Source of the DNA: a virus
Taxonomy: Duplodnaviria > Heunggongvirae > Uroviricota > Caudoviricetes
Virus record (IMG/VR): IMGVR_UViG_2695420617_000005
Coordinates: 1 to 14,002 of that record
Length of the DNA: 14,002 bases
Reading direction: 5' to 3' (one strand)
Positions 1 through 13,254 of this stretch are shown piece by piece. Each line of letters opens with the position of its first letter. Within the stretch, counting starts at the first letter, position 1. The notes under the pieces are model-generated. The model saw only the letters and a list, made by a program, of their open reading frames with translations, had not been told where the DNA came from and made no database searches. The position numbers were made by a program, and so were the translations under genes.

Positions 1-102
1 TCTTTTCCTTTACTTTCTTTTTCTTTTTTGTGTGTTCTGCCCTTCCTTTTTTTCCTTTTTTTTTTCCGCTTTCGGCGCCCCCCGAGATCTACCCCTCTCT
101 TT
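1..102. other. Low-complexity T/C-rich non-biological sequence (read-end junk) preceding an adapter
   Basis: Homopolymer-like T and C runs with no coding or structural logic, immediately followed by a library adapter; the ORF-track translation here (FLFFLFFF...) is meaningless. Confidence 0.6.
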
Positions 103-135
103 TCGTCGTCAGCGTCAGATGTGTATAAGAGACAG
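103..135 (+). other. Nextera/Tn5 transposase adapter ending in the 19-bp mosaic end AGATGTGTATAAGAGACAG
   Basis: tcgtcgtcagcgtcAGATGTGTATAAGAGACAG matches the Nextera read-1 adapter plus Tn5 ME as recalled, with one mismatch in the overhang; ME at 117-135. Genuine sequence starts at 136. Confidence 0.85.
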
Positions 136-279
136 GTTTTCGACGTTACACGCATGATTTTGTCAGCGAAAGAAGAGTTGGCTAATGAAGCGCATCCGAT
201 TGATGGCCTGTCTGGTGAATATGCGGAGAAATCCCTTGAAGAATGGGCGGAACAGATTCGCAAAGGAAGCAGCCAGTGA
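136..279 (+). CDS. 3' fragment of a CDS truncated by the contig/adapter boundary; hypothetical protein (C-terminal 47 aa)
   Basis: Open frame continuing from the adapter junction to TGA at 277-279 (VFDVTRMILSAKEEL...KGSSQ); N-terminus missing. Confidence 0.45.
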   Translation, partial: VFDVTRMILSAKEELANEAHPIDGLSGEYAEKSLEEWAEQIRKGSSQ

Positions 280-566
280 ATATCGACACGACCGTAACGA
301 TCGATACGCTCCTAAATACCGGTCTGGCACTTCTCGGTTGGCTTTACATCATGTCCCGCACATGGCGATGGCTGGGTTCCATTTTCCTAAAACAGTGGAA
401 AAAACGGCGCAAACAGGAACTACGCCAGAAGGCATTAGAAGCGTTCTATGACGCATTTGAGCTTAGCCGCATTGAACCAGGTACAACAGCCAGGATAGCG
501 ACAAAAGGCGACCTGATGATAGTGATGTTCCGACAGGAGAGAGCAGAGAAAGGGGAATCAGCATGA
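276..566 (+). CDS. Hypothetical small membrane protein (96 aa from a GTG start), one predicted TM helix then a basic tail
   Basis: GTG at 276 overlaps the upstream stop (GTGA) and is preceded by AAGGAAG at 263-269. Hydrophobic segment TLLNTGLALLGWLYIM followed by KQWKKRRKQ. Start could instead be ATG 243. Confidence 0.45.
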   Translation: MNIDTTVTIDTLLNTGLALLGWLYIMSRTWRWLGSIFLKQWKKRRKQELRQKALEAFYDAFELSRIEPGTTARIATKGDLMIVMFRQERAEKGESA

Positions 567-1297
567 AATTTTCCAAATTTTCTGAGTTGGTGAATCGTAT
601 TTTGTCCAACAACCACAGCCATCGTCGCGATATGGATGTAACAATCGTTGTTCATTCGCCTGGCAGCATTGGTTCAACACCTTCAGTTGAGGTTCAGTCA
701 ATTCACGCTGGTTTTGATTGGGATTCCGGGAAAGTGCTTATTTTCCCATCACAGCCACTGACCACGCTAACACCAGAACAGATTACTGATATCACTGATA
801 GTGTGCGCAAAGGTCAGTCTTGGCACGCATATCAGGAATACAAGAAGCATCAAGAGCAGTTGGAAAAATTGTCGATTGAACTGGATGCCGCAAAACAGCG
901 CATTGCAGAGCTGGAGGGTAATCGCACGGCGCTGGCAGTGGAGAATGAGCTGGCTCGTAAGGCAGTTCAGGCATTCTGCGATGTTGTTGGCGACAACACC
1001 GAGGTTATCGCTGAGGTGGTTGGGCGAGATGGCGTTCTGGTTATTTTGGAGGCCATGAAGGCAACAGGAAATATGCCAGCCACCGATGCTTTCCTGGCTG
1101 AAGTACGGGCGCAGGGGGTAGAGATGTACGCAGATAACCTCGACAACGTAGCAGGAGACGCAGAACGAGGTGGTTTTGATTATGCCGTTAAGTTTCTACG
1201 CAGTGAAGCGTCTAGTGTACGTTTGTTCGCCGACCAGCTTCGCAAAGGAGGCGACCAGTGGGTAAATCAAAATGCCAGGTTTATGGCAACAAGATAG
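563..1297 (+). CDS. Hypothetical protein, 244 aa, with a central predicted coiled-coil
   Basis: ATG 563 overlaps the upstream stop (ATGA). Heptad-like region EQLEKLSIELDAAKQRIAELEGNRTALAVENELARKA. No motif I can assign. Confidence 0.6.
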   Translation: MKFSKFSELVNRILSNNHSHRRDMDVTIVVHSPGSIGSTPSVEVQSIHAGFDWDSGKVLIFPSQPLTTLTPEQITDITDSVRKGQSWHAYQEYKKHQEQLEKLSIELDAAKQRIAELEGNRTALAVENELARKAVQAFCDVVGDNTEVIAEVVGRDGVLVILEAMKATGNMPATDAFLAEVRAQGVEMYADNLDNVAGDAERGGFDYAVKFLRSEASSVRLFADQLRKGGDQWVNQNARFMATR

Positions 1298-1512
1298 AAC
1301 CGTGTACGACCCTGGCAAAATCCCTTGAGCATGATGCTGAATACACGATGCGAAAAGGTCTGCTGATATACAAAATCTGGAATGAGAGTTTAACTCGCGG
1401 TCCTGATTTTGTGATGTTGCGTTCCGGTGAATTTTCTAAATTACCAGTTCGGGTTTCATTTTGTCCGTTCTGTGGTGAAAGTCTGAAAACGTGGGAGAAC
1501 AGAAATGAATGA
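1258..1512 (+). CDS. Hypothetical small zinc-ribbon-like protein, 84 aa
   Basis: GTG start with AAGGAGG at 1243-1249. Four Cys arranged C6, C16 ... C69-P-F-C72. Overlaps the 3' end of the previous gene out of frame. Confidence 0.5.
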   Translation: MGKSKCQVYGNKIEPCTTLAKSLEHDAEYTMRKGLLIYKIWNESLTRGPDFVMLRSGEFSKLPVRVSFCPFCGESLKTWENRNE

Positions 1513-1816
1513 AATTAAAGAAATACCAGTAGTACGTGATGAATATGGCTACTGGACGCATCCTGAATATGAAAAATTCTGTGACGGTCGGGAATATATT
1601 TCAACGGAAGAGTTTAACGCCTGGATGGAGGAAAATAATCTTCAATACGTCCTCTGCTTCAGAGATGAAGGATGTGCTGACCTTGATGCGTGTGATGCTG
1701 ATATTTCTGCATGGGAACCGGAACGACCAGAGGGCAATGGATGGTTTATTGGTTCAATACATGACACCGAAGATGGCCCGGTTTGTGTATGGCTGAGAAA
1801 TAAGGCCGAAGCATAA
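1505..1816 (+). CDS. Hypothetical highly acidic small protein, 103 aa
   Basis: ATG 1505 in an ATGAATGA overlap with the upstream stop. About 25 Asp/Glu versus about 8 Lys/Arg (net about -17), with Cys/Asp-rich stretch CFRDEGCADLDACDAD. Confidence 0.55.
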   Translation: MNEIKEIPVVRDEYGYWTHPEYEKFCDGREYISTEEFNAWMEENNLQYVLCFRDEGCADLDACDADISAWEPERPEGNGWFIGSIHDTEDGPVCVWLRNKAEA

Positions 1817-1920
1817 AGGCTATAAACCGACTAACAACTAAATACTGAAGATTTAAATCAGAAACGATTTTTATTAAATCCTTAACCGGAGGGATTCCTG
1901 CACCCTCAGAACATCAGGAG

Positions 1921-1938
1921 GCCGCCCGAAAGGGCGGT
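1921..1938 (+). promoter_or_regulatory. GC-rich hairpin (6-bp stem ccgccc/gggcgg, GAAA loop) between an AGGAGG motif and the start codon of the next ORF
   Basis: AGGAGG at 1916-1921, hairpin 1921-1938, ATG at 1944. No U-tract follows, so it does not look like an intrinsic terminator. Confidence 0.4.
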
Positions 1939-1943
1939 AAGAA

Positions 1944-2162
1944 ATGACTACATTATTCAGAAAAGAATATCCGCAAAAAAGTAGGGCGACAGAATTTTTG
2001 TTTCTCATTCTGTTTATCGTATTGATGATACCGATATCCCCTCTAATTTTTGTCTGGGCAATCGGGAAAATAATTGAGCCAGTTACTGAATTGTATAACG
2101 ACGTGGTATGGGCGTCATTCAACACACTGCACAATAAAATTAATCCGTATAAGGAAAACTGA
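1944..2162 (+). CDS. Hypothetical small membrane protein, 72 aa, single TM segment
   Basis: Hydrophobic stretch FLFLILFIVLMIPISPLIFVWAIG. Linear SD spacing is too long (22 nt) unless the hairpin brings SD and ATG together. Confidence 0.4.
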   Translation: MTTLFRKEYPQKSRATEFLFLILFIVLMIPISPLIFVWAIGKIIEPVTELYNDVVWASFNTLHNKINPYKEN

Positions 2163-2163
2163 T

Positions 2164-2427
2164 ATGGCAACTTTGACAAAAAAAGAACGGGCATGGTTGA
2201 ACGAATTACAGGAAGTTCTTGATCGCTGTCCATCACCGAAAAAAATTGGCTTTTACACCATTGGCGATAAAAGCATTTACCTGTATGACCTGCGCCGCAT
2301 GGATGAAATCATGGAGGCTCTTGATAATCGTTCGTCAATGGATTGGTGTGTTGCTGTCCATGATATGAATGCAGGGTTTGATGAAAAGATTTTGTTCCCC
2401 TCATCAGTTGAAAGCACTGCGGGTTAA
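2164..2427 (+). CDS. Hypothetical protein, 87 aa
   Basis: ATG 2164 two nt after the upstream stop, AAGGAAAA 8 nt upstream. The longer ORF-track version from 2074 is probably not the real start. Confidence 0.5.
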   Translation: MATLTKKERAWLNELQEVLDRCPSPKKIGFYTIGDKSIYLYDLRRMDEIMEALDNRSSMDWCVAVHDMNAGFDEKILFPSSVESTAG

Positions 2428-2437
2428 GGAGTAACAC

Positions 2438-3436
2438 ATGACCACTATTACCAAAGAACGTATTGAATTGTTCATTAAAAATCCGCTTGAAAACGGGCTT
2501 ACCCGTGGTGAACAAATGGAACTGGCACGGATTGCACTGGCATCACTGGAAGCAGAGCCTGTTCTGTATCAGTCCTGCACTCGTCCCACCTGGAATAGCG
2601 GTGTTCCGTGGACGGAATGGAAAGAACGAAGTCGTGAGTGCTACGAAGACGATTTGCGCTTTACAGACACGCCTGACCATGCCGGTTGGATATACAAATG
2701 TCGAAAACTATATACCACTCCGCCAGCGCCGATAGCGTTAGAGGCCATTGAAAACGCAATTGAATACATCCGCAGTATCGCTTTTCACATCGATGAAGAC
2801 GATTACCACGGCAAACATATTGCGTATTTCATGCAACAAGCATTGGCCTGGCTGGAAGGGCATTCATGCAGCGACGACAGACTGGGTAAAGCCGAGAATC
2901 AACCAGTACGCGGCAACCAGGCTGCCGAATCCAATCGCAGTAATGAGTGGACTGGCAATCCTGATATTGATAACGCCATCATCATGCTCGACCGCATAGA
3001 TACGCTGGAAAGTTGCGATGATGACCGTATTGAGGCGGTTAAGGCTGTTTTGCGTAGACTGGCTGGCAACTATCCGGATATTCCGGATAGTTCGGTGCCA
3101 GCGCCAGGAAAGGGCGTCACCGGTGAACGTATCCGCATTAAGCCGCATGTTTATCGCGAACTGGTTAACCGTCTCCACGATACAGCGATCAAGTGTGCTG
3201 GCACCCAGCAATTACGAGAAAGAATTAGCCGTGTTTTGGGCGACGTTATTACACCAGATCATCATAAACAAGCCGAGAAAAGTGGCCTGGAAAGGTGTCA
3301 CCTTGAGACGGCATTAAACATTAAGCCGGGGCATACGCTTGGCATTATTGATGCACTATTGGTTCATAAGATGGCCAGGGCTTTATTGCCGCTGGTGGCT
3401 GAAAAGCATGAGGCGGACCATGCCAACGAAAGCTGA
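2438..3436 (+). CDS. Hypothetical protein, 332 aa, acidic, no recognisable motif
   Basis: Strong RBS TAAGGAG at 2424-2430 with 7-nt spacing to ATG. Longest ORF in the left block. Confidence 0.65.
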   Translation: MTTITKERIELFIKNPLENGLTRGEQMELARIALASLEAEPVLYQSCTRPTWNSGVPWTEWKERSRECYEDDLRFTDTPDHAGWIYKCRKLYTTPPAPIALEAIENAIEYIRSIAFHIDEDDYHGKHIAYFMQQALAWLEGHSCSDDRLGKAENQPVRGNQAAESNRSNEWTGNPDIDNAIIMLDRIDTLESCDDDRIEAVKAVLRRLAGNYPDIPDSSVPAPGKGVTGERIRIKPHVYRELVNRLHDTAIKCAGTQQLRERISRVLGDVITPDHHKQAEKSGLERCHLETALNIKPGHTLGIIDALLVHKMARALLPLVAEKHEADHANES

Positions 3437-3704
3437 GTTACAGGCGCGCATAGAGATTCTTGAAAAAGAGAATGCGAGTCTAAAAGGAATGCTGGCACGG
3501 GCGGAAAGGGAATTATCAGGTAAATTATTGCCAGAAGAACTGCCACCAGCAGATATACCAGATCGAGTGTCCCAGTGGATGAAGTCTTTTGGTTTACCGT
3601 GGGAGGCTTTTTGGTGCTACGAGCATCGCAGATGGTGTGATGAACTTGATAGCAGTTTTCCCTACTTTGCGGAAGGGAACACTTGCCCTGAGTGTAGGAG
3701 GTAG
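3420..3704 (+). CDS. Hypothetical protein, 94 aa: N-terminal coiled-coil plus C-terminal zinc-finger-like motif
   Basis: ATG 3420 with GAGG 6 nt upstream, overlapping the 3' end of the previous gene. C-terminal CYEHRRWC...CPEC (C-x6-C-x17-C-x2-C). Confidence 0.5.
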   Translation: MPTKAELQARIEILEKENASLKGMLARAERELSGKLLPEELPPADIPDRVSQWMKSFGLPWEAFWCYEHRRWCDELDSSFPYFAEGNTCPECRR

Positions 3705-3708
3705 CGCG

Positions 3709-3969
3709 ATGTTTCGTCCTCGTCCAATACCGCCGAAAATAACTAATGGCTATCAGCCGAATACTCCAGAAATACAAGGGAGCGAGGGGCTTAAACCACC
3801 ACCAGCACCACGTATTCCGCCTGTAGCAAGGAGCGTATCATTACGACGAGAGTTAATATTAGCCTTGTCGCCCGTTCTGGCTGCCCGCCAGGATTGGGTA
3901 AGTAATGATGACCTGGCAGAAAAAATCACATCGCTGGTGGATAAAATTCTGCATAAAGCTGATCTCTGA
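3709..3969 (+). CDS. Hypothetical proline-rich protein, 86 aa
   Basis: AGGAGG at 3695-3700, 8 nt from ATG 3709. Pro-rich N-terminal half (RPRPIPPK...KPPPAPRIPP). Confidence 0.4.
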   Translation: MFRPRPIPPKITNGYQPNTPEIQGSEGLKPPPAPRIPPVARSVSLRRELILALSPVLAARQDWVSNDDLAEKITSLVDKILHKADL

Positions 3970-3979
3970 TCACCATGCT

Positions 3980-4013
3980 AAAATCCCCTCAATTCACAGA
4001 GGGGATTTTTGTC
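3980..4013 (+). terminator. Rho-independent terminator (11-bp stem, 8-nt loop, U-tract)
   Basis: aaaatcccctc (3980-3990) pairs with gaggggatttt (3999-4009), followed by TTTTTGT. Closes the upstream plus-strand gene string. Confidence 0.6.
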
Positions 4014-4014
4014 T

Positions 4015-4281
4015 ATGTTGTATAGAGTTTTATGGAAAAGCGTTATTGTCGGCGCGATACTGGCTATATCTGGGTGTGCAATGGTGCAATACAACGACGG
4101 TGAAAAGGTAAGCATACAGTCAGATGGTTGGTATGGCCTGGATAGCCTGCAAAAAACCGCAGATAAAGCCTGTCAGCAATATGGGAAGTCTAAAGCTGTA
4201 TATCAGCATAGCGCGAACGCTAATCCCCATCTCGCTCCTGGGTCGGGTGTTCAGAATACCATCTGGAAATGTGAGCTTTAA
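4015..4281 (+). CDS. Putative lipoprotein, 88 aa (signal peptide with lipobox ISGC)
   Basis: N-terminus MLYRVLWKSVIVGAILAISGC fits a signal peptidase II lipobox. Starts 2 nt after the terminator U-tract, with SD-like GAGGGG inside the terminator stem. Confidence 0.6.
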   Translation: MLYRVLWKSVIVGAILAISGCAMVQYNDGEKVSIQSDGWYGLDSLQKTADKACQQYGKSKAVYQHSANANPHLAPGSGVQNTIWKCEL

Positions 4282-4291
4282 ACGTGAGCAA

Positions 4292-4305
4292 CTGCAATAT
4301 TGCAG
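4292..4305. promoter_or_regulatory. Perfect 14-bp palindrome CTGCAATATTGCAG in the gap before the Toprim-like gene; candidate operator
   Basis: Exact dyad symmetry in the 48-bp intergenic gap. Not followed by a U-tract, so more likely a protein-binding site than a terminator. Confidence 0.35.
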
Positions 4306-4329
4306 CTAAAAGCCAGGAAGAACGGAATT

Positions 4330-4854
4330 ATGACAAAATTTGGAAAGCTGGAAGCTCATTTGCTAACTCGTAACTACCGCCATGATATACACCCATATAG
4401 ACAGTGGATCGATGAAAGTGAAGGAGTAGTTACATTCCCTCTATACAGGTTTGATGGGATGTTGGCTGGGTATCAGACATATAGACCAGGTGCTCCTAAG
4501 CAGCATAGCAATCCGAAGATGGCCCGGTATTTCACGCGATCACATGGCAGACAGTTACTTTGGGGAACCTATCTTCCTTTAAAAGATGGCCCAATATGGA
4601 TCACTGAGTCTATTTTTAAGAGCGCAGCTGTACACAACGCGGGCGGCAATTCGTGGGCGCTGTTAGGTTCGACTTTCTCCGCAGGATTACGCCGTCAACT
4701 TGCGATGCTGCCGTATGACTTTCGTGTAATAGGTGACAATGATGCGGCTGGTGAATTACTTGTGAAGTCTTTCGGAAAAGGTTTTGTGGCCCCGGATCTT
4801 GACGAGCTACAACCACATGAAGTGTCTCATTTGATTTTTAGCCATAGCCAATAA
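4330..4854 (+). CDS. Hypothetical protein with a Toprim-like motif pair, 174 aa
   Basis: AGGAAG 9 nt before ATG 4330. Conserved-Glu context WITESIF followed about 50 aa later by VIGDNDAAGE, the E ... DxD arrangement of DnaG-type Toprim domains. Called by eye, not by HMM. Confidence 0.55.
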   Translation: MTKFGKLEAHLLTRNYRHDIHPYRQWIDESEGVVTFPLYRFDGMLAGYQTYRPGAPKQHSNPKMARYFTRSHGRQLLWGTYLPLKDGPIWITESIFKSAAVHNAGGNSWALLGSTFSAGLRRQLAMLPYDFRVIGDNDAAGELLVKSFGKGFVAPDLDELQPHEVSHLIFSHSQ

Positions 4855-4870
4855 GCCTCCCTCCTCCATC

Positions 4871-4917
4871 AAGGCCACAATTTGTGACCTTAAACAATTT
4901 GTTTTCTGCTTTTTCTT
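4871..4917 (+). terminator. Possible weak terminator: imperfect 21-bp palindrome plus T-rich tract
   Basis: AAGGcCACAAtTTGTGaCCTT (4871-4891) then tttgttttctgctttttctt. Sits in the convergent intergenic region; could alternatively be a protein-binding dyad. Confidence 0.3.
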
Positions 4918-4980
4918 ATTTGAGGAAATAACGTTGTTGACAGCTAATAGGCTCGTTGTTGTTATACATGCCTGTATAGA

Positions 4981-5337
4981 TTATGACCGTAAATTATTAG
5001 CGGATTTTAAGCCATATTCACCGTTGTAGAAATTACTCATGTTCCATTCATTAGGAAGTTCTTTTCTGTCCAATGTATAGTGGCGCACGATATAACGATC
5101 TTCATCTTCTTCGATGGACAGGCGGACATAGCCAATGTGAATCACCGATACGGGCGGTGTTCGTATTGCATAGATGTCGCGGAGATATACCGGCAGCTCG
5201 ACAAATGCATCAGGTGCATCTGTGATGCTCGTTTTTTCACAGTATTCATATAACGCATCGTTGATATCGTTAAGAGATTCATGATCGTATATTTCCAGGT
5301 AATTACCGCGATCGCGATGGTACTCGATTTTAGCCAT
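4981..5337 (-). CDS. Hypothetical protein, 118 aa; distal gene of a two-gene minus-strand operon
   Basis: ATG directly abuts the upstream gene stop (TGAATG on the minus strand), with AGGGGA as RBS. Visibly AT-richer than its neighbours, with an acidic patch SIEEDEDRY. Confidence 0.6.
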   Translation of the reverse strand: MAKIEYHRDRGNYLEIYDHESLNDINDALYEYCEKTSITDAPDAFVELPVYLRDIYAIRTPPVSVIHIGYVRLSIEEDEDRYIVRHYTLDRKELPNEWNMSNFYNGEYGLKSANNLRS

Positions 5338-5922
5338 TCAAAATCCCCTGTTATCGTTTTGCATTTCTCTAATCCGGTTCAGAACTACTTCGTGCTGGAC
5401 TTGGATAGCGGCTTTTTCGTTTTCAAGCCGGGCAATAGACATCTCTAATTCTTTGCTGTACCAGGCGAGCTGGGCCAGGTTCATCCGGTTGTGGTCGAGA
5501 GTTGGAGACACTTCGACGCGATCCCTTTCTTCCTGCTTTAATGAGAAGAGATTCATCTCATCCCTTGAGGAAAATTCAGCAACAATTTCTTGTTGATGAT
5601 CCGGTCGCTGCGGCATCCTCGCCAGTATAAATGGCGGTTCTTTTGAAAACATGAATGTCGGTTCAGACCGTGTTTTTACCCAGCTTGCCTGCTGTCTTTC
5701 GGCAAGTTCACAGGCTTCATCATAGTTATCTGCCAAACAAAGCACGGATGGACGGTCCCACGCCCCACCATTCAGACAATAAACTACAATTTTCCCGTCA
5801 GGTTGTGTAACCCCATATGGATGGTCCCACCAGGCGTCCAGCTGAGCTTTAGAGCGTTTCTCGTTAGGAGTGCAGTCAAAATTTTTGGGCAATACAGGAT
5901 CGAGAGGAATGCGATTAGGCAT
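5338..5922 (-). CDS. Hypothetical protein, 194 aa; Cys-containing N-terminal domain and C-terminal predicted coiled-coil
   Basis: AAGGA RBS upstream of the minus-strand ATG at 5922. C-terminal heptad-like region LAQLAWYSKELEMSIARLENEKAAIQVQHEVVLNRIREMQ. Divergent from humD. Confidence 0.65.
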   Translation of the reverse strand: MPNRIPLDPVLPKNFDCTPNEKRSKAQLDAWWDHPYGVTQPDGKIVVYCLNGGAWDRPSVLCLADNYDEACELAERQQASWVKTRSEPTFMFSKEPPFILARMPQRPDHQQEIVAEFSSRDEMNLFSLKQEERDRVEVSPTLDHNRMNLAQLAWYSKELEMSIARLENEKAAIQVQHEVVLNRIREMQNDNRGF

Positions 5923-6058
5923 AGCTAATTCCTTATTAACTGATTGGCAACGAGGTTACGCTGATCCCGCGGTGATGAATAGTAGCAAAGCGCACAAAAA
6001 TCATCAGCGGTGGTTGATGTACATAACGCGTTTGCACCAAAGGTGCTTCTTTAATGTA

Positions 6059-6078
6059 TACTGTACGGATAAACAGTA
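6059..6078. promoter_or_regulatory. LexA (SOS) box TACTGTACGGATAAACAGTA about 20 bp upstream of humD
   Basis: Fits the CTGT-N8-ACAG core with TA flanks. A possible -10 TATACT (6057-6062) overlaps it; -35 assignment is uncertain. Confidence 0.7.
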
Positions 6079-6096
6079 TTTTTGAGGTAAAACGCT

Positions 6097-6486
6097 ATGG
6101 GTTTCCCTTCTCCTGCGGCGGATTATGTTGAAAGCCGAATTTCTCTTGATCAGCAGATAATTAGACATCCATCAGCAACCTACTTCATGCGGGCAGCTGA
6201 TAGCCATCACCGTGAGGGAATATTGCAGGGTGCTTTGCTGGTGGTTGATTCTTCGCTTACTCCAGTTGATGGTTCGCTGCTTGTGTGCGCTATGGAGGGT
6301 GAATATCGCATAAAGAGATACAGGAAGTATCCGCGCCAGCACCTGGAGGATTTAAGCACCGGGAAGAAAGAGGCGTTACCAGTAGATGACGATGGTTACA
6401 CGGGTAGTAATGCTGTTTTTGGTGTGATCACTCATGTCATCAATGATGCCCGGAGTGGGGAGTTTGATGATTGTCCGGTCATTTAA
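6097..6486 (+). CDS. humD: HumD, UmuD'-like translesion-synthesis accessory protein (129 aa)
   Basis: Begins MGFPSPAADYVE, i.e. at the position equivalent to the UmuD'-generating cleavage site (UmuD ...C/GFPSPAADYVE...). HPSATYF and Ser/Lys contexts conserved. GAGG RBS. Confidence 0.9.
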   Translation: MGFPSPAADYVESRISLDQQIIRHPSATYFMRAADSHHREGILQGALLVVDSSLTPVDGSLLVCAMEGEYRIKRYRKYPRQHLEDLSTGKKEALPVDDDGYTGSNAVFGVITHVINDARSGEFDDCPVI

Positions 6487-8416: not shown

Positions 8417-8433
8417 ATTGCTCTAATGTATTG
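8417..8433 (+). promoter_or_regulatory. C1 repressor operator (ATTGCTCTAATGTATTG) overlapping the lpa promoter -35
   Basis: 14/17 match to the recalled P1 C1 operator consensus ATTGCTCTAATAAATTT, with the first 11 positions exact. Confidence 0.6.
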
Positions 8434-8984: not shown

Positions 8985-9042
8985 GACATGTGACTTTCGT
9001 TACCCTCGCGTCAAAAAGAGTTTTATACGAAAGGAAGCATAA

Positions 9043-10236: not shown

Positions 10237-11720
10237 TGGCCAGAAGTTGCGTAACGGATCCACGTTGGCGCGAGCTGGTGGCGCTATATCGTTATGACTG
10301 GATTGCGGCCGCTGATGTTTTGTTCGGCAAAACACCTACCTGGCAGCAGGATCTGATTATTGAGTCTGTGCAGGAACAGGGTAGCAAGACATCTGTTTCG
10401 TCTGGTCACGGTACCGGGAAATCAGACATGACTTCTATCATGATCATGTTGTTCATAATCATGTATCCCGGTGCCCGCGCTATTATCGTTGCGAACAAAA
10501 TTCAGCAGGTAATGACCGGTATATTCAAGTACATCAAGATAAACTGGGCTACTGCCACCAGCCGTTTCCCATGGCTTGCTGATTATTTTGTTCTGACAGA
10601 AACCGCTTTCTATGAGGTTACTGGTAAAGGTGTATGGACTGTAGTACCGAAGGGCTTTCGTCTGGGAAGTGAAGAAGCTCTCGCCGGTGAACACGCAGAT
10701 CATCTTCTGTATATTATCGATGAAGCCTCCGGTGTCAGTGATAGAGCTTTCGGTATCATCACCGGTGCTCTTACCGGACAGGATAACCGCATCTTATTAC
10801 TGTCACAGCCTACACGCCCAAGCGGCTATTTCTACGATACACACCATAAACTGGCCAAGCGTCCTGGTAACCCTGATGGCGTTTATACGGCGATCACGCT
10901 TAACAGTGAGGAATCACCGCTGGTAACGCCAGCATTTATCAAAATGAAGCTGGCGGAGTACGGCGGGCGTGATAACCCTATGTACATGATTAAGGTACGC
11001 GGCCTATTCCCTAAATCACAGGATGGCTTCCTTCTTGGACGTGATGAGGTTGAACGTGCAACGCGGCGGAAAGTCAAGATTGCAAAAGGATGGGGCTGGC
11101 TTGCATGTGTGGACGTTGCTGGTGGTACGGGACGGGATAAGTCCGTTATCAATATCATGATGGTGTCCGGCCAGCGAAATAAACGCCGTGTAATCAACTA
11201 TCGAATGCTGGAATACACAGACGTTACAGAAACGCAGCTTGCCGCCAAAATTTTCGCAGAATGTAATCCTGAGCGATTCCCAAATATCACCATAGCGATA
11301 GACGGCGATGGCCTGGGTAAAGCAACGGCGGATCTGATGTACGAGTATTATGGTATTACCGTACAGCGTATACGCTGGGGTAAAAAGATGCATAGCCGTG
11401 AAGATAAGAGCCTGTACTTTGATAAACGTGCTTATGCCAACGTTCAAGCCGCAGAGGCCGTAAAATCTGGTCGTATGAGACTGGATAAGGGTAATGAAAC
11501 TATTGAGGAAGCGTCGAAAATCCCTGTAGGGATTAACTCCGCAGGTCAATGGAAGGTGATGAGTAAGGAGGATATGAAGAAAAAACTCAACCTGCACTCA
11601 CCAGACCATTGGGATACATATTGTTTCGCTATGCTGGCGGATTATGTTCCCCAGGATGAAGTGCTTAGCGTCGAAGACGAAGCGCAGGTTGATGAAGCTC
11701 TGGCATGGCTTAATGAATAA
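10236..11720 (+). CDS. pacB: PacB, terminase large/ATPase subunit (494 aa)
   Basis: TAATG overlap with pacA. Walker A-like P-loop [10 protein letters not shown] near the N-terminus; length 494 aa. Confidence 0.9.
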
Positions 11721-11744
11721 CTCATTGACCATGCCGGATAGAAA

Positions 11745-12596
11745 CTATTGCGCGCTTTCGGGGTTGTCGTTTACCGGCTGCCCCTTCTTAGTTTTACGGC
11801 TGCGCGTAACTGATGCGGCTGATTTGACCTTTTTCTCTTCGCGAGTGATGGCAATTTGTTTTTTTACATTTTCAATATCTGCCAGGCGATATATTTTTGC
11901 CTGCGGCCAGCGGTCGCAGATGATCGGTTCTATGGAGTCATAAAGGCTAAATTTTGCTTTCTCGAATTCACCGTTGATGATGATTCCATCACGGAGAGTT
12001 TCATCGCAGATAAACACACCACACAGCGGCACATGGTAACTAACTGATTTACCATCATTGTAGTTAGGGCTACTGGAAATGTAATGGACGCGTAGCATTG
12101 TTTCGCTAAAGCCGTGTACACGCATACGGAATTTTTCATCCTCCGGGTACTGCTTCATTAGCTCTTTTGTTGCTTCCAGGTTCTCTATGTATTTCGCACT
12201 GTGCTCATTGATCCCCGCGCTTTTCTGGATGCGAATGTCCTTATCAATCAGATGAATAATGCGGCCAGCGGTCATGTTGACGCTGTTCACAGCTTCTGTC
12301 TGATAAGTCGTAACCTTACGCACACCGCGAAGGATGTTAGGCACTGGATATAAAATAGTCTTTGGGATATTGAGGTCTGGGTACTGTTCCAGTTCCCGCG
12401 CCATTAAAGTCCATTTATCAATTTCAGCCTGAATGCTGTCCGTTTCTTTGAACGGCAGAACGACAACCGGGCGAACAGGACGACCGTCGCTGGCGGCATC
12501 AACGTGTTGGGCGCGTGCAACAGCTTTTTTTAGAAAGAGATCCCTGAAGCTGACGAACTCCTGGTACAGTTGTTCGCCGTAGACATAATTTATCAT
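11745..12596 (-). CDS. c1: C1 master repressor of lysogeny (283 aa)
   Basis: MINYVYGEQLYQEFVSFRDLFLKK..., 283 aa, GGAGGAGG RBS. Convergent with pacB, adjacent to coi and the operator cluster. Confidence 0.9.
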   Translation of the reverse strand: MINYVYGEQLYQEFVSFRDLFLKKAVARAQHVDAASDGRPVRPVVVLPFKETDSIQAEIDKWTLMARELEQYPDLNIPKTILYPVPNILRGVRKVTTYQTEAVNSVNMTAGRIIHLIDKDIRIQKSAGINEHSAKYIENLEATKELMKQYPEDEKFRMRVHGFSETMLRVHYISSSPNYNDGKSVSYHVPLCGVFICDETLRDGIIINGEFEKAKFSLYDSIEPIICDRWPQAKIYRLADIENVKKQIAITREEKKVKSAASVTRSRKTKKGQPVNDNPESAQ

Positions 12597-12690: not shown

Positions 12691-12707
12691 AGATTTATTA
12701 GTGCATT
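12691..12707 (-). promoter_or_regulatory. C1 operator-like site abutting the coi stop codon (candidate c1 autoregulatory operator)
   Basis: Minus-strand reading AATGCACTAATAAATCT, 14/17 to the recalled consensus. Confidence 0.45.
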
Positions 12708-13154: not shown

Positions 13155-13171
13155 TAATTTATTAGAGCAAT
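13155..13171 (-). promoter_or_regulatory. C1 operator (immC Op99-type), minus-strand ATTGCTCTAATAAATTA
   Basis: 16/17 match to the recalled consensus, upstream of the imcB/imcA-coi-c1 transcription unit. Confidence 0.65.
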
Positions 13172-13237: not shown

Positions 13238-13254
13238 ATTGCTCTAATAATTCT
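13238..13254 (+). promoter_or_regulatory. C1 operator (immC Op99-type), plus-strand ATTGCTCTAATAATTCT
   Basis: 13 consecutive consensus positions; opposite orientation to the 13155 operator, about 67 bp away. Confidence 0.55.

Follow-up and report, generated by a model that had tools for sequence, protein, structure and literature searches.

The 14,002 nucleotides (nt) of the IMG/VR virus record IMGVR_UViG_2695420617_000005 analysed here (the window) carry the backbone of a P1-like phage-plasmid and, to the left of it, a block of twelve open reading frames (ORFs) at positions 136-4854. This block is with high probability the distal two-thirds of a hypervariable accessory slot of the phage-plasmid: an early, C1-repressed and dispensable operon, assembled as a mosaic of lambdoid and P1-family cassettes and shuffled by recombination. 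The block is real, mostly of unknown function and ordinary for P1-like phage-plasmids, and the variable slot itself is already known.

The accessory slot and its flanks

Two complete plasmids, the Escherichia coli plasmid p28Eco12 (NZ_CP038506.1) and a second one, are 100% identical to the window over positions 136-5200. The plus-strand gene string to which the block belongs is longer in p28Eco12, where it starts directly after pap with a gene whose product is homologous to PmgT and has the block at its distal end. Right after pap there is also a C1 operator (p28Eco12 positions 3519-3535, one mismatch), 2.8 kb upstream of the contig start, and the Op88 (OpmgT) region with promoters P1pmgT and P2pmgT is 99% identical in P1, P7 and p28Eco12. 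Given pap/Op88 on the left and upf93.6, lxr and humD on the right (Table 1), the block occupies the slot that contains pmgT-pmgU-pmgV-upfM/N/O-hot in reference P1 and upf86.8-upf91.7 in P7. The interval from pmgT to humD is "variable region 8" among the eight regions described as hypervariable in P1-like phage-plasmids (Yang et al. 2022, PMC9603915). The right flank of this region is present in the window and the left one in the 100% identical p28Eco12, and the content between them varies among close P1-like relatives. In P1, the slot genes pmgT, pmgU, pmgV, upfN, upfO and hot are non-essential by CRISPR interference (CRISPRi) and deletion; upfM was not targeted by CRISPRi and its non-essentiality rests on a cited deletion survey (Piya et al. 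2023, PMC10695390).

A sequence-only reading of the window had proposed a candidate variable accessory region on a P1-like backbone. This proposal holds: the whole block is present in one or two records, it is mosaic over nine compared loci and the region is published as hypervariable (PMC9603915). Alignment to reference P1 and P1-like relatives revealed a variable block and not a series of P1 genes in P1 order. The same reading let the string begin at the contig start, which has to be corrected. Positions 1-135 are non-biological: the Nextera/Tn5 read-1 adapter takes up 103-135 (1 mismatch), the bases before it are T/C-rich junk of low complexity, and all megablast database matches begin at 136. 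The contig start is thus an artefact of untrimmed library sequence, the first gene is truncated by the adapter, and the real start of the operon lies about 2.8 kb upstream, at pap/Op88. The statement that P1 is recognisable from humD onward is correct for the backbone right of the block but sets its beginning too far to the right: the genes between the block and humD are homologues of P7 Upf93.6 and P1 Lxr, so that the recognisable P1-family backbone starts already at 4981.

The block has to be regarded as already known, because it is identical to deposited plasmids, the slot has been published as hypervariable and lambdoid-type content is present in the annotations of D6, P7 and RCS47. An assembly chimera was ruled out by 5 kb of 100% identity to two independent complete plasmids.

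Variability and mosaic origin

Partial matches were found in 736 plasmids and 3339 E. coli genomes, of which 1-2 records contain the whole block in this order at a coverage of at least 80%. Nine loci, including P1, P7, D6, RCS47, three further P1-like plasmids and prophage Rac-SA53, were compared in a tblastn/blastn matrix. Each ORF is present, absent or relocated independently across these loci, and the breakpoints lie on gene boundaries or close to them. Reference P1 lacks counterparts of eleven of the twelve ORFs, the C-terminus of ORF8 being the sole match. The earlier claim that no ORF matches a P1 protein therefore stands for these eleven and fails for ORF8, whose residues 209-320 are 95% identical to PmgU. 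Further matches lie in P7: ORF4 is of P7 Upf87.4 type, ORF8 is of Upf89.5 type and fragments of the ORF12 gene are located in P7 around IS903.

The five segments of the block differ strongly in the places where they occur, chromosomal places prevailing on the left and plasmid places on the right (Table 1). By this gradient, the left 3.6 kb can be assigned to lambdoid prophages and the right 1.1 kb to the P1 family. The left part comprises two Ea22-type genes and genes for a DUF4752 protein, an 84-aa (amino acid) protein with four cysteines, an acidic 103-aa protein, a DUF4014 protein, an 87-aa protein, a 332-aa protein of EaA/PmgU type and a 94-aa protein. The right part, found almost only on plasmids, comprises an 86-aa ORF, a lipoprotein gene behind a hairpin and a primase-domain gene; its segment 3700-4335 is covered to at least 80% in 14 genomes only. 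In prophage Rac-SA53, homologues of the left part (ead-rac21-rac22) follow the replication genes, in a position like that of nin. The gene order of the block was not found in any lambdoid prophage searched.

Reading frames and their arrangement

The description of the block as twelve tightly packed plus-strand genes was confirmed, eleven of the ORFs being complete and the first one truncated. The matches to PHROG and Pfam families, Shine-Dalgarno (SD) motifs before most ORF starts and the bias of substitutions towards third codon positions show that they are genes and not chance frames. PHROG families were matched by ten of the eleven complete ORFs with E <= 1e-37, with ORF10 as the exception, and two ORFs passed the Pfam gathering score (DUF4752 in ORF2 and DUF4014 in ORF6). 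A search of the block ORFs against NCBIfam yielded nothing meaningful. Substitutions relative to diverged copies are concentrated in third positions in ORF4, ORF5, ORF8, ORF11 and ORF12; the counts are 36-37 of 55-57 for ORF5, 21-22 of 27-28 for ORF11 and 26 of 31 for ORF12.

Spacings between consecutive ORFs are -4, -4, -40, -8, +127, +1, +10, -17, +4, +45 and +48 nt. The stop/start overlaps quoted in the sequence-only reading are all present (GTGA at 276-279, ATGA at 563-566 and ATGAATGA at 1505-1512). The operon-like character which it deduced is borne out by these coupled starts and stops but is not continuous, as the string is broken at 1817-1943, a gap of 127 nt that contains a conserved linker, and at 3980-4009, where there is a terminator-like hairpin with a T-run. 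A sigma-70 scan found no plus-strand promoter in the block and fewer matches than in shuffled sequence. No C1 operator was found inside the block, all four matches in the window lying beyond 8400, and no P1 late-promoter (Lpa-type) pattern either, the LPpac promoter at 8988 being the only match in the window. An Rfam scan of positions 1-6200 at a permissive threshold gave no match.

Table 1. Features of the block and of its right flank, with the distribution of block segments
Feature	Position	Strand	Description
ORF1, ead/Ea22-like gene, 3' end	136..279	+	47 codons; 100% identical to p28Eco12 5599-6465, annotated ead/Ea22-like
ORF2, DUF4752	276..566	+	96 aa, basic, N-terminal hydrophobic segment; PF15944 2.2e-42, 143 bits (cut-off 27); phrog_667
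ORF3, Ea22-type paralogue	563..1297	+	244 aa; N-terminal domain, central coiled coil, C-terminal region; phrog_368 1.6e-58
ORF4	1258..1512	+	84 aa, four Cys (CX9C ... CXXC); phrog_4030 5.7e-37
ORF5	1505..1816	+	103 aa, acidic, net charge -17, pI 4.1
ORF6, DUF4014	1944..2162	+	72 aa, small membrane protein; PF13198 5.3e-26, 91 bits (cut-off 23.2); phrog_1832
ORF7	2164..2427	+	87 aa; phrog_1714 9.5e-51
ORF8, mosaic EaA/PmgU-type	2438..3436	+	332 aa; phrog_21459 1.5e-100, phrog_60; AAGGAG 6 nt 5' of ATG
ORF9	3420..3704	+	94 aa, N-terminal coiled coil, C-terminal CX6C...CXXC (four Cys); phrog_3797 2.2e-56
ORF10	3709..3969	+	86 aa, proline-rich N-terminus; AGGAGGT 6 nt upstream; annotated in p28Eco12
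ORF11, lipoprotein precursor	4015..4281	+	88 aa, lipobox LAISG/C (slash, cleavage site); phrog_7757 4e-52
ORF12, primase RNA-polymerase (Toprim) domain	4330..4854	+	174 aa, stand-alone, DnaG/T7-gp4 type; phrog_849 "DNA primase"
22-bp junction motif TTCGCAAAGGARGCRRCCAGTG, copy 1	257-278	+	exact repeat, none expected by chance
22-bp junction motif, copy 2	1239-1260	+	exact repeat
Conserved linker, ~65 nt	1875..1940	+	AGGAGG (1915-1920), then hairpin GCCGCCC-GAAA-GGGCGG, then ATG at 1944
Terminator-like hairpin	3980..4009	+	11-bp stem, then TTTTGTCT; top-ranked terminator-like site of the scan; between ORF10 and ORF11
Segment	276-1816		chromosome 2016, plasmid 440 places
Segment (linker, ORF6, ORF7)	1817-2437		chromosome 4782, plasmid 107 places
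Segment	2438-3704		chromosome 1612, plasmid 513 places
Segment	3700-4335		chromosome 2, plasmid 186 places
Segment	4330-4854		chromosome 0, plasmid 147 places
P7 Upf93.6 homologue	4981-5337	-	99% identical to P7
P1 Lxr / P7 Upf94.2 homologue	5338-5922	-	94% identical to P1 lxr
LexA box	6061-6076		between lxr and humD
humD	6097-6486		

Ea22-type genes and junction sequences

The truncated first gene belongs to the Ead/Ea22 family. Its full-length version in p28Eco12 encodes 288 aa and matches Pfam Ead_Ea22 (PF13935) with 3.5e-19 and 70 bits at a cut-off of 27; the fragment in the window matches phrog_28257, phrog_614 and phrog_368. The last of these families is common to the fragment and to ORF3, and otherwise the two genes have only short motifs in common. 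ORF3 does not match PF13935 at E < 0.1. The basic DUF4752 protein of ORF2, encoded between the two genes, has an N-terminal hydrophobic segment that is weaker in hydropathy than the helix of the DUF4014 protein.

Both Ea22-type genes end in an exactly repeated 22-bp (base pair) motif, which spans the 3' end of the gene together with the SD sequence and GTG start of the next one; copy 2 includes AGGAGG and the GTG start of ORF4. The motif is also present at the ends of Ea22-type genes in p28Eco12 and in two further compared loci (L005 and L006). The TGA of the motif reads TGG in ORF3, which makes this ORF longer by 13 codons and gives rise to the unusual 40-nt overlap with ORF4.

The second candidate junction is the conserved linker upstream of the DUF4014 gene. 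Its AGGAGG is 24 nt away from the ATG, with a stable hairpin with a GNRA loop between them, and no SD sequence was found within 21 nt of the ATG. The hairpin is present in both minimum-free-energy and centroid folds (z = -2.9). The linker recurs at 88-97% identity immediately 5' of unrelated genes in nin-like regions of lambdoid prophages; in one relative, its stem carries two non-compensatory changes at the top. The linker may be both a split ribosome-binding site and a recombination junction. Its arrangement resembles, by analogy, the split ribosome-binding site of T4 gene 38.

ORF4 to ORF7

ORF4 has homologues in P7 (Upf87.4, 74% identity) and in Rac-SA53 (rac21, 89%), and its four cysteines suggest that it could possibly bind zinc. 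ORF5 represents a widespread Enterobacterales "prophage protein" family of about 103 aa with many invariant residues. The model of ORF5 (predicted local distance difference test, pLDDT, 82) has no relative among solved structures, including solved DNA mimics. The DUF4014 protein has one strong hydrophobic helix at residues 19-37 (hydropathy 2.96), and ORF7 is 98-100% identical in two other plasmids. A literature search found no paper that mentions DUF4752 or DUF4014.

Opposite to the DUF4014 gene, an antisense ORF on the minus strand (1874-2236) has a PHROG family of its own (phrog_20982, 4.8e-34). Since this ORF and the DUF4014 gene share their third codon positions, the substitution test cannot separate the two. 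The antisense ORF was set aside as a gene in favour of the Pfam-supported plus-strand gene, and phrog_20982 is probably a family of mis-called antisense ORFs.

ORF8 and the pmgT/pmgU pair of P1

ORF8 is a mosaic gene. Its N-terminal module of about 42 aa (first ~126 nt) is common to many chromosomal genes and its middle part is variable. The C-terminal module (approximately residues 209-332, last ~370 nt) is conserved across P1-like elements and corresponds to P1 PmgU and to the C-terminus of P7 Upf89.5. The 95% identity of residues 209-320 to P1 PmgU refers to the pmgU frame; the identity to P7 is 97%, and ORF8 as a whole is of P7 Upf89.5 type. RefSeq splits ORF8 into a pseudogene fragment at 2438-2563 and a coding sequence from 2564, although its 332 codons run uninterrupted.

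In reference P1 (NC_005856; locus L002, positions 11183-11189; window positions 3061-3401), residues 1-232 of PmgT match the first gene of the p28Eco12 operon, and residues 235-308 result from reading the conserved C-terminal module of ORF8 out of frame; pmgU is the in-frame remainder of the same module. In p28Eco12, about 4.8 kb separates the PmgT part from the PmgU module; P1 lacks this DNA and joins the two parts through 5 unmatched bases. Because one module is read in two frames in this way, the overlapping pmgT/pmgU pair of P1 looks like the scar of an out-of-frame deletion, as judged from the alignment.

ORF9 is present in most of the P1-like relatives compared, with 86-98% identity in loci L004-L008 and L011; it is unannotated in p28Eco12 and annotated in the relatives of this plasmid. 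ORF10, which has no PHROG, Pfam or NCBIfam match, is the weakest gene call of the twelve.

Lipoprotein gene

The signal peptide of ORF11 ends in a lipobox (MLYRVLWKSVIVGAILAISG, followed by the cysteine) that agrees with the pattern for bacterial lipoproteins, and the protein is predicted to be lipidated. In all homologues, the lipobox cysteine and the mature part are conserved and the signal peptide is variable. The 67 aa of the mature part are near invariant at 10% divergence of the DNA, mostly in third positions; judging from these substitutions, ORF11 is under strong purifying selection. Homologues in Klebsiella and Enterobacter prophages are 68-82% identical. In E. coli, the gene is found almost only on plasmids, usually directly before hot. 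It is unannotated in four of the five RefSeq records checked (p28Eco12 and three of four other plasmids) and annotated in pQnrS1_005237. It follows the hairpin that looks most like a terminator in this region, an arrangement typical of morons.

A stand-alone primase RNA-polymerase domain

ORF12 aligns to positions 145-333 of the 435 of the phrog_849 profile. In its AlphaFold2 model (pLDDT 90), the protein is predicted to adopt the fold of an RNA-polymerase domain with a Toprim subdomain, the best Foldseek matches being the primase domains of DnaG and T7 gp4 (TM-score 0.6-0.68, probability 1.0). Sequence similarity to DnaG is marginal (E about 1e-3 by profile and none by single sequence), and phmmer searches against PDB sequences with ORF3, ORF5, ORF8 and ORF12 found nothing significant. 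Residues equivalent to K229, E265, D309 and D311 of DnaG are conserved in ORF12; in the family profile E93, D136 and D138 are invariant and Lys97 stands at the D269 position, which leaves the acidic metal-binding set of DnaG (E265, D269, D309, D311) incomplete. The protein contains no zinc-binding, helicase-binding or helicase domain and no cysteines.

The family is large, with members mostly of 160-190 aa, a length kept down to 32% identity. Counted by a crude regular expression among the homologues (P0001-P0353), it falls into an ExxxD and an ExxxK branch; all members of P1 type are ExxxK, and distant stand-alone relatives keep the Asp. The length of the homologues and the synonymous bias of substitutions ruled out ORF12 as a truncated primase pseudogene. 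P7 Upf86.8 (annotated "DNA primase" in RefSeq) was ruled out as a zinc-binding partner of ORF12, being a PmgT homologue (phrog_874).

In complete E. coli genomes, all 147 places of ORF12 are on plasmids, and about 85 plasmids keep just the 3' 210 bp of the gene. In P7 (NC_050152), IS903 is inserted in a remnant of the gene: positions 10496-10567 (upf91.7 area) and 11628-11759 of locus L003 together encode residues 109-174 of ORF12. ORF12 and hot replace each other in the eleven plasmid and phage loci compared, none of which has both genes intact.

Further features of the backbone

Beyond humD, the window contains phd, doc, pdcB, lpa, pacAB and c1. The regulatory sites of the backbone are intact, with C1-operator matches at 8417-8433, 12691-12707, 13155-13171 and 13238-13254 (including Olpa and the c1/coi operators) and LPpac at 8988-9006. 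In p28Eco12, and likewise in P1 and P7, an unannotated 28-codon ORF with its own SD sequence, encoding the hydrophobic peptide MNTAFKIIMAAIYFWLFSITFGGIVAHG, is located between Op88 and pmgT (3618-3704 in p28Eco12), in a stretch 99% identical in p28Eco12, P1 and P7.

Discussion

We propose that the block is expressed early and reshuffled in the following way. When C1 repression is lifted upon infection or induction, sigma-70-dependent transcription from the pmgT promoters would run through the translationally coupled genes of an early dispensable operon, and the lipoprotein gene would be expressed separately, as a moron. New gene sets would arise by homologous recombination with resident lambdoid prophages, which would use short conserved junctions, namely the 22-bp motif at the ends of Ea22-type genes, the 65-nt SD-hairpin linker and the conserved 5' and 3' modules of genes. 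The products probably tune host and phage and do not serve the building of virions; the position shared by hot and the primase-domain gene may concern the replisome, and the envelope is a possible site of action of the lipoprotein and of the two small membrane proteins. The Ea22-type proteins may, by analogy with lambda, influence the lysis-lysogeny decision, which is offered as a lead for function only.

Several observations weigh against parts of this proposal. C1 control is deduced from the annotation of P1 and an operator that lies 2.8 kb beyond the window, and recombination at the junction motifs from the positions of breakpoints. The promoter scan found none on the plus strand of the block, including the part with ORF11 and ORF12 downstream of the hairpin. 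As to individual genes, ORF10 is without family support, part of ORF8 (2438-2563) is marked as a pseudogene fragment in RefSeq, and the Ea22 analogy of ORF3 draws on its PHROG co-membership, not on Pfam membership.

An operon that lies early and behind a repressor-controlled promoter could also be a dedicated counter-defence or host-takeover island, as the sequence-only reading had suggested, directed against restriction-modification, abortive infection or other immunity; in such an island, the acidic ORF5 might mimic DNA and the primase-domain protein might serve as a decoy. The net charge of -17 over the 103 aa of ORF5 is in line with such a role. The same slot in relatives carries an adenine methyltransferase (JL22), HNH and metallophosphoesterase genes (D6) and ASCH proteins, and a distant Toprim homologue is encoded near a Lar restriction-alleviation-like gene. 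The anti-restriction genes of P1 itself (dar), however, map elsewhere. ORF5 shows no structural likeness to solved DNA mimics, and a PADLOC scan of ten ORFs gave no match, PADLOC being composed of defence models that say little on anti-defence proteins. For the block ORFs there is no annotated anti-defence family, PDB relative or literature link, no paper ties DUF4752 or DUF4014 to any function, and these families do not figure in the accessory-gene screen of Silas et al. A dedicated island of this kind is unlikely, though single genes such as ORF5 may have such a function. A related and still more speculative idea, with a slim chance of being correct, is that the last position of the slot is a "replisome-tuning" site, occupied by either Hot or ORF12. 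ORF12 would then not be a conventional primase and might bind DnaB/Ban helicase, SSB or primed templates and so redirect or protect replication, or act as a decoy against host defence, and ORF5 could be a new DNA-mimic inhibitor; position, fold and charge are the basis of these suggestions.

Traces of decay are present in the region: the pseudogene fragment within ORF8 and many more in relatives, the plasmids with just 210 bp of the ORF12 gene, the out-of-frame fusion scar of pmgT/pmgU in P1 and the reading of ORF3 beyond its usual stop. They could mean that the block is mostly decaying recombination debris, made of fragments and fusions that are carried passively. Yet all twelve frames are open, with starts either coupled or provided with SD sequences, the lengths of the families are conserved over wide taxonomic ranges, and the third-position bias in five ORFs speaks of purifying selection; in view of the open frames and this selection, pure decay is quite improbable. 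Least credible is a morphogenetic role, which is implied by the P1 annotation of pmgT, pmgU and pmgV ("putative morphogenetic function") and by the description of phrog_1832, the DUF4014 family, as "released from the phage upon host infection". The three P1 genes are non-essential for plaques according to CRISPRi and deletion (PMC10695390), and no late promoter of Lpa type was found in the block, both of which make such a role very hard to sustain. Moreover, the content of the slot is swapped wholesale between otherwise near-identical phage-plasmids, and the homologues in lambdoid prophages belong to early regions, not to late structural operons. The main texts of a P1 virion paper and a P1vir RNA-seq paper contain no mention of pmgT/U/V or hot.

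Taken as an early accessory operon of mosaic origin, the block is a concrete example of the traffic of early accessory genes between P1-like phage-plasmids and chromosomal lambdoid prophages, and it points to the junction sequences where the exchange seems to occur. The odd pmgT/pmgU overlap of reference P1 would find its explanation as a deletion scar. Candidates for functional tests are the primase-domain protein that alternates with hot, the conserved lipoprotein gene and the acidic family without a fold match. The current understanding of P1 biology is unchanged by these leads, which are useful and, given the mosaicism of phages, not surprising.

Comparison with known systems

The block resembles the early accessory regions of lambdoid phages, that is the exo-xis "ea" region of lambda and Shiga toxin phages and the nin-like region. 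It shares with them the Ead/Ea22, DUF4752, DUF4014, EaA/DUF551-type and rac21/rac22 families, the arrangement in short overlapping genes on the same strand, and near-identical DNA segments. The two differ in their setting, which is a P1-type plasmid prophage under a C1 operator here and pL/pR with N antitermination there.

Ea22 of lambda is a tetrameric, pro-lysogenic early protein with a mosaic, variable N-terminus, a coiled coil and a variable C-terminal domain (PMC10834534, PMC7093339). The upstream gene of the block is a member of Pfam Ead_Ea22, and ORF3 shares its PHROG and the three-part layout with a central coiled coil; the mosaic swapping of domains is likewise as described for Ea22 variants. 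ORF3 differs in that it scores below the Pfam model and in that its N- and C-terminal parts are unrelated to those of lambda Ea22.

ORF12 is similar to DnaG-type primases (the core of E. coli DnaG and the T7 gp4 fragment) in the predicted fold of the RNA-polymerase domain, including the Toprim subdomain, and in motif residues. It differs from them by its length of 174 aa, by the absence of zinc-binding and helicase parts and by the Lys at the D269 position. With P1 Hot, a homologue of the theta subunit of DNA polymerase III, it has in common the last plus-strand position of the slot, and in many relatives the gene after the lipoprotein gene is hot and not, as in this plasmid, the primase-domain gene; there is no relation in sequence or fold between the two proteins.

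The closest known counterparts of the block as a whole are the pmgT-hot slot of P1 and the upf86.8-upf91.7 ("hea") operon of P7, with the same slot, flanks and orientation. The gene for the PmgT N-terminal part (upstream of the window), the PmgU module and the Upf87.4- and Upf89.5-type genes are shared with them. In comparison with reference P1, the content is almost wholly different: pmgV, upfM/N/O and hot are missing, the PmgT part is separated from the PmgU module by about 4.8 kb of lambdoid-type genes, and a primase-domain gene stands in the place of hot.

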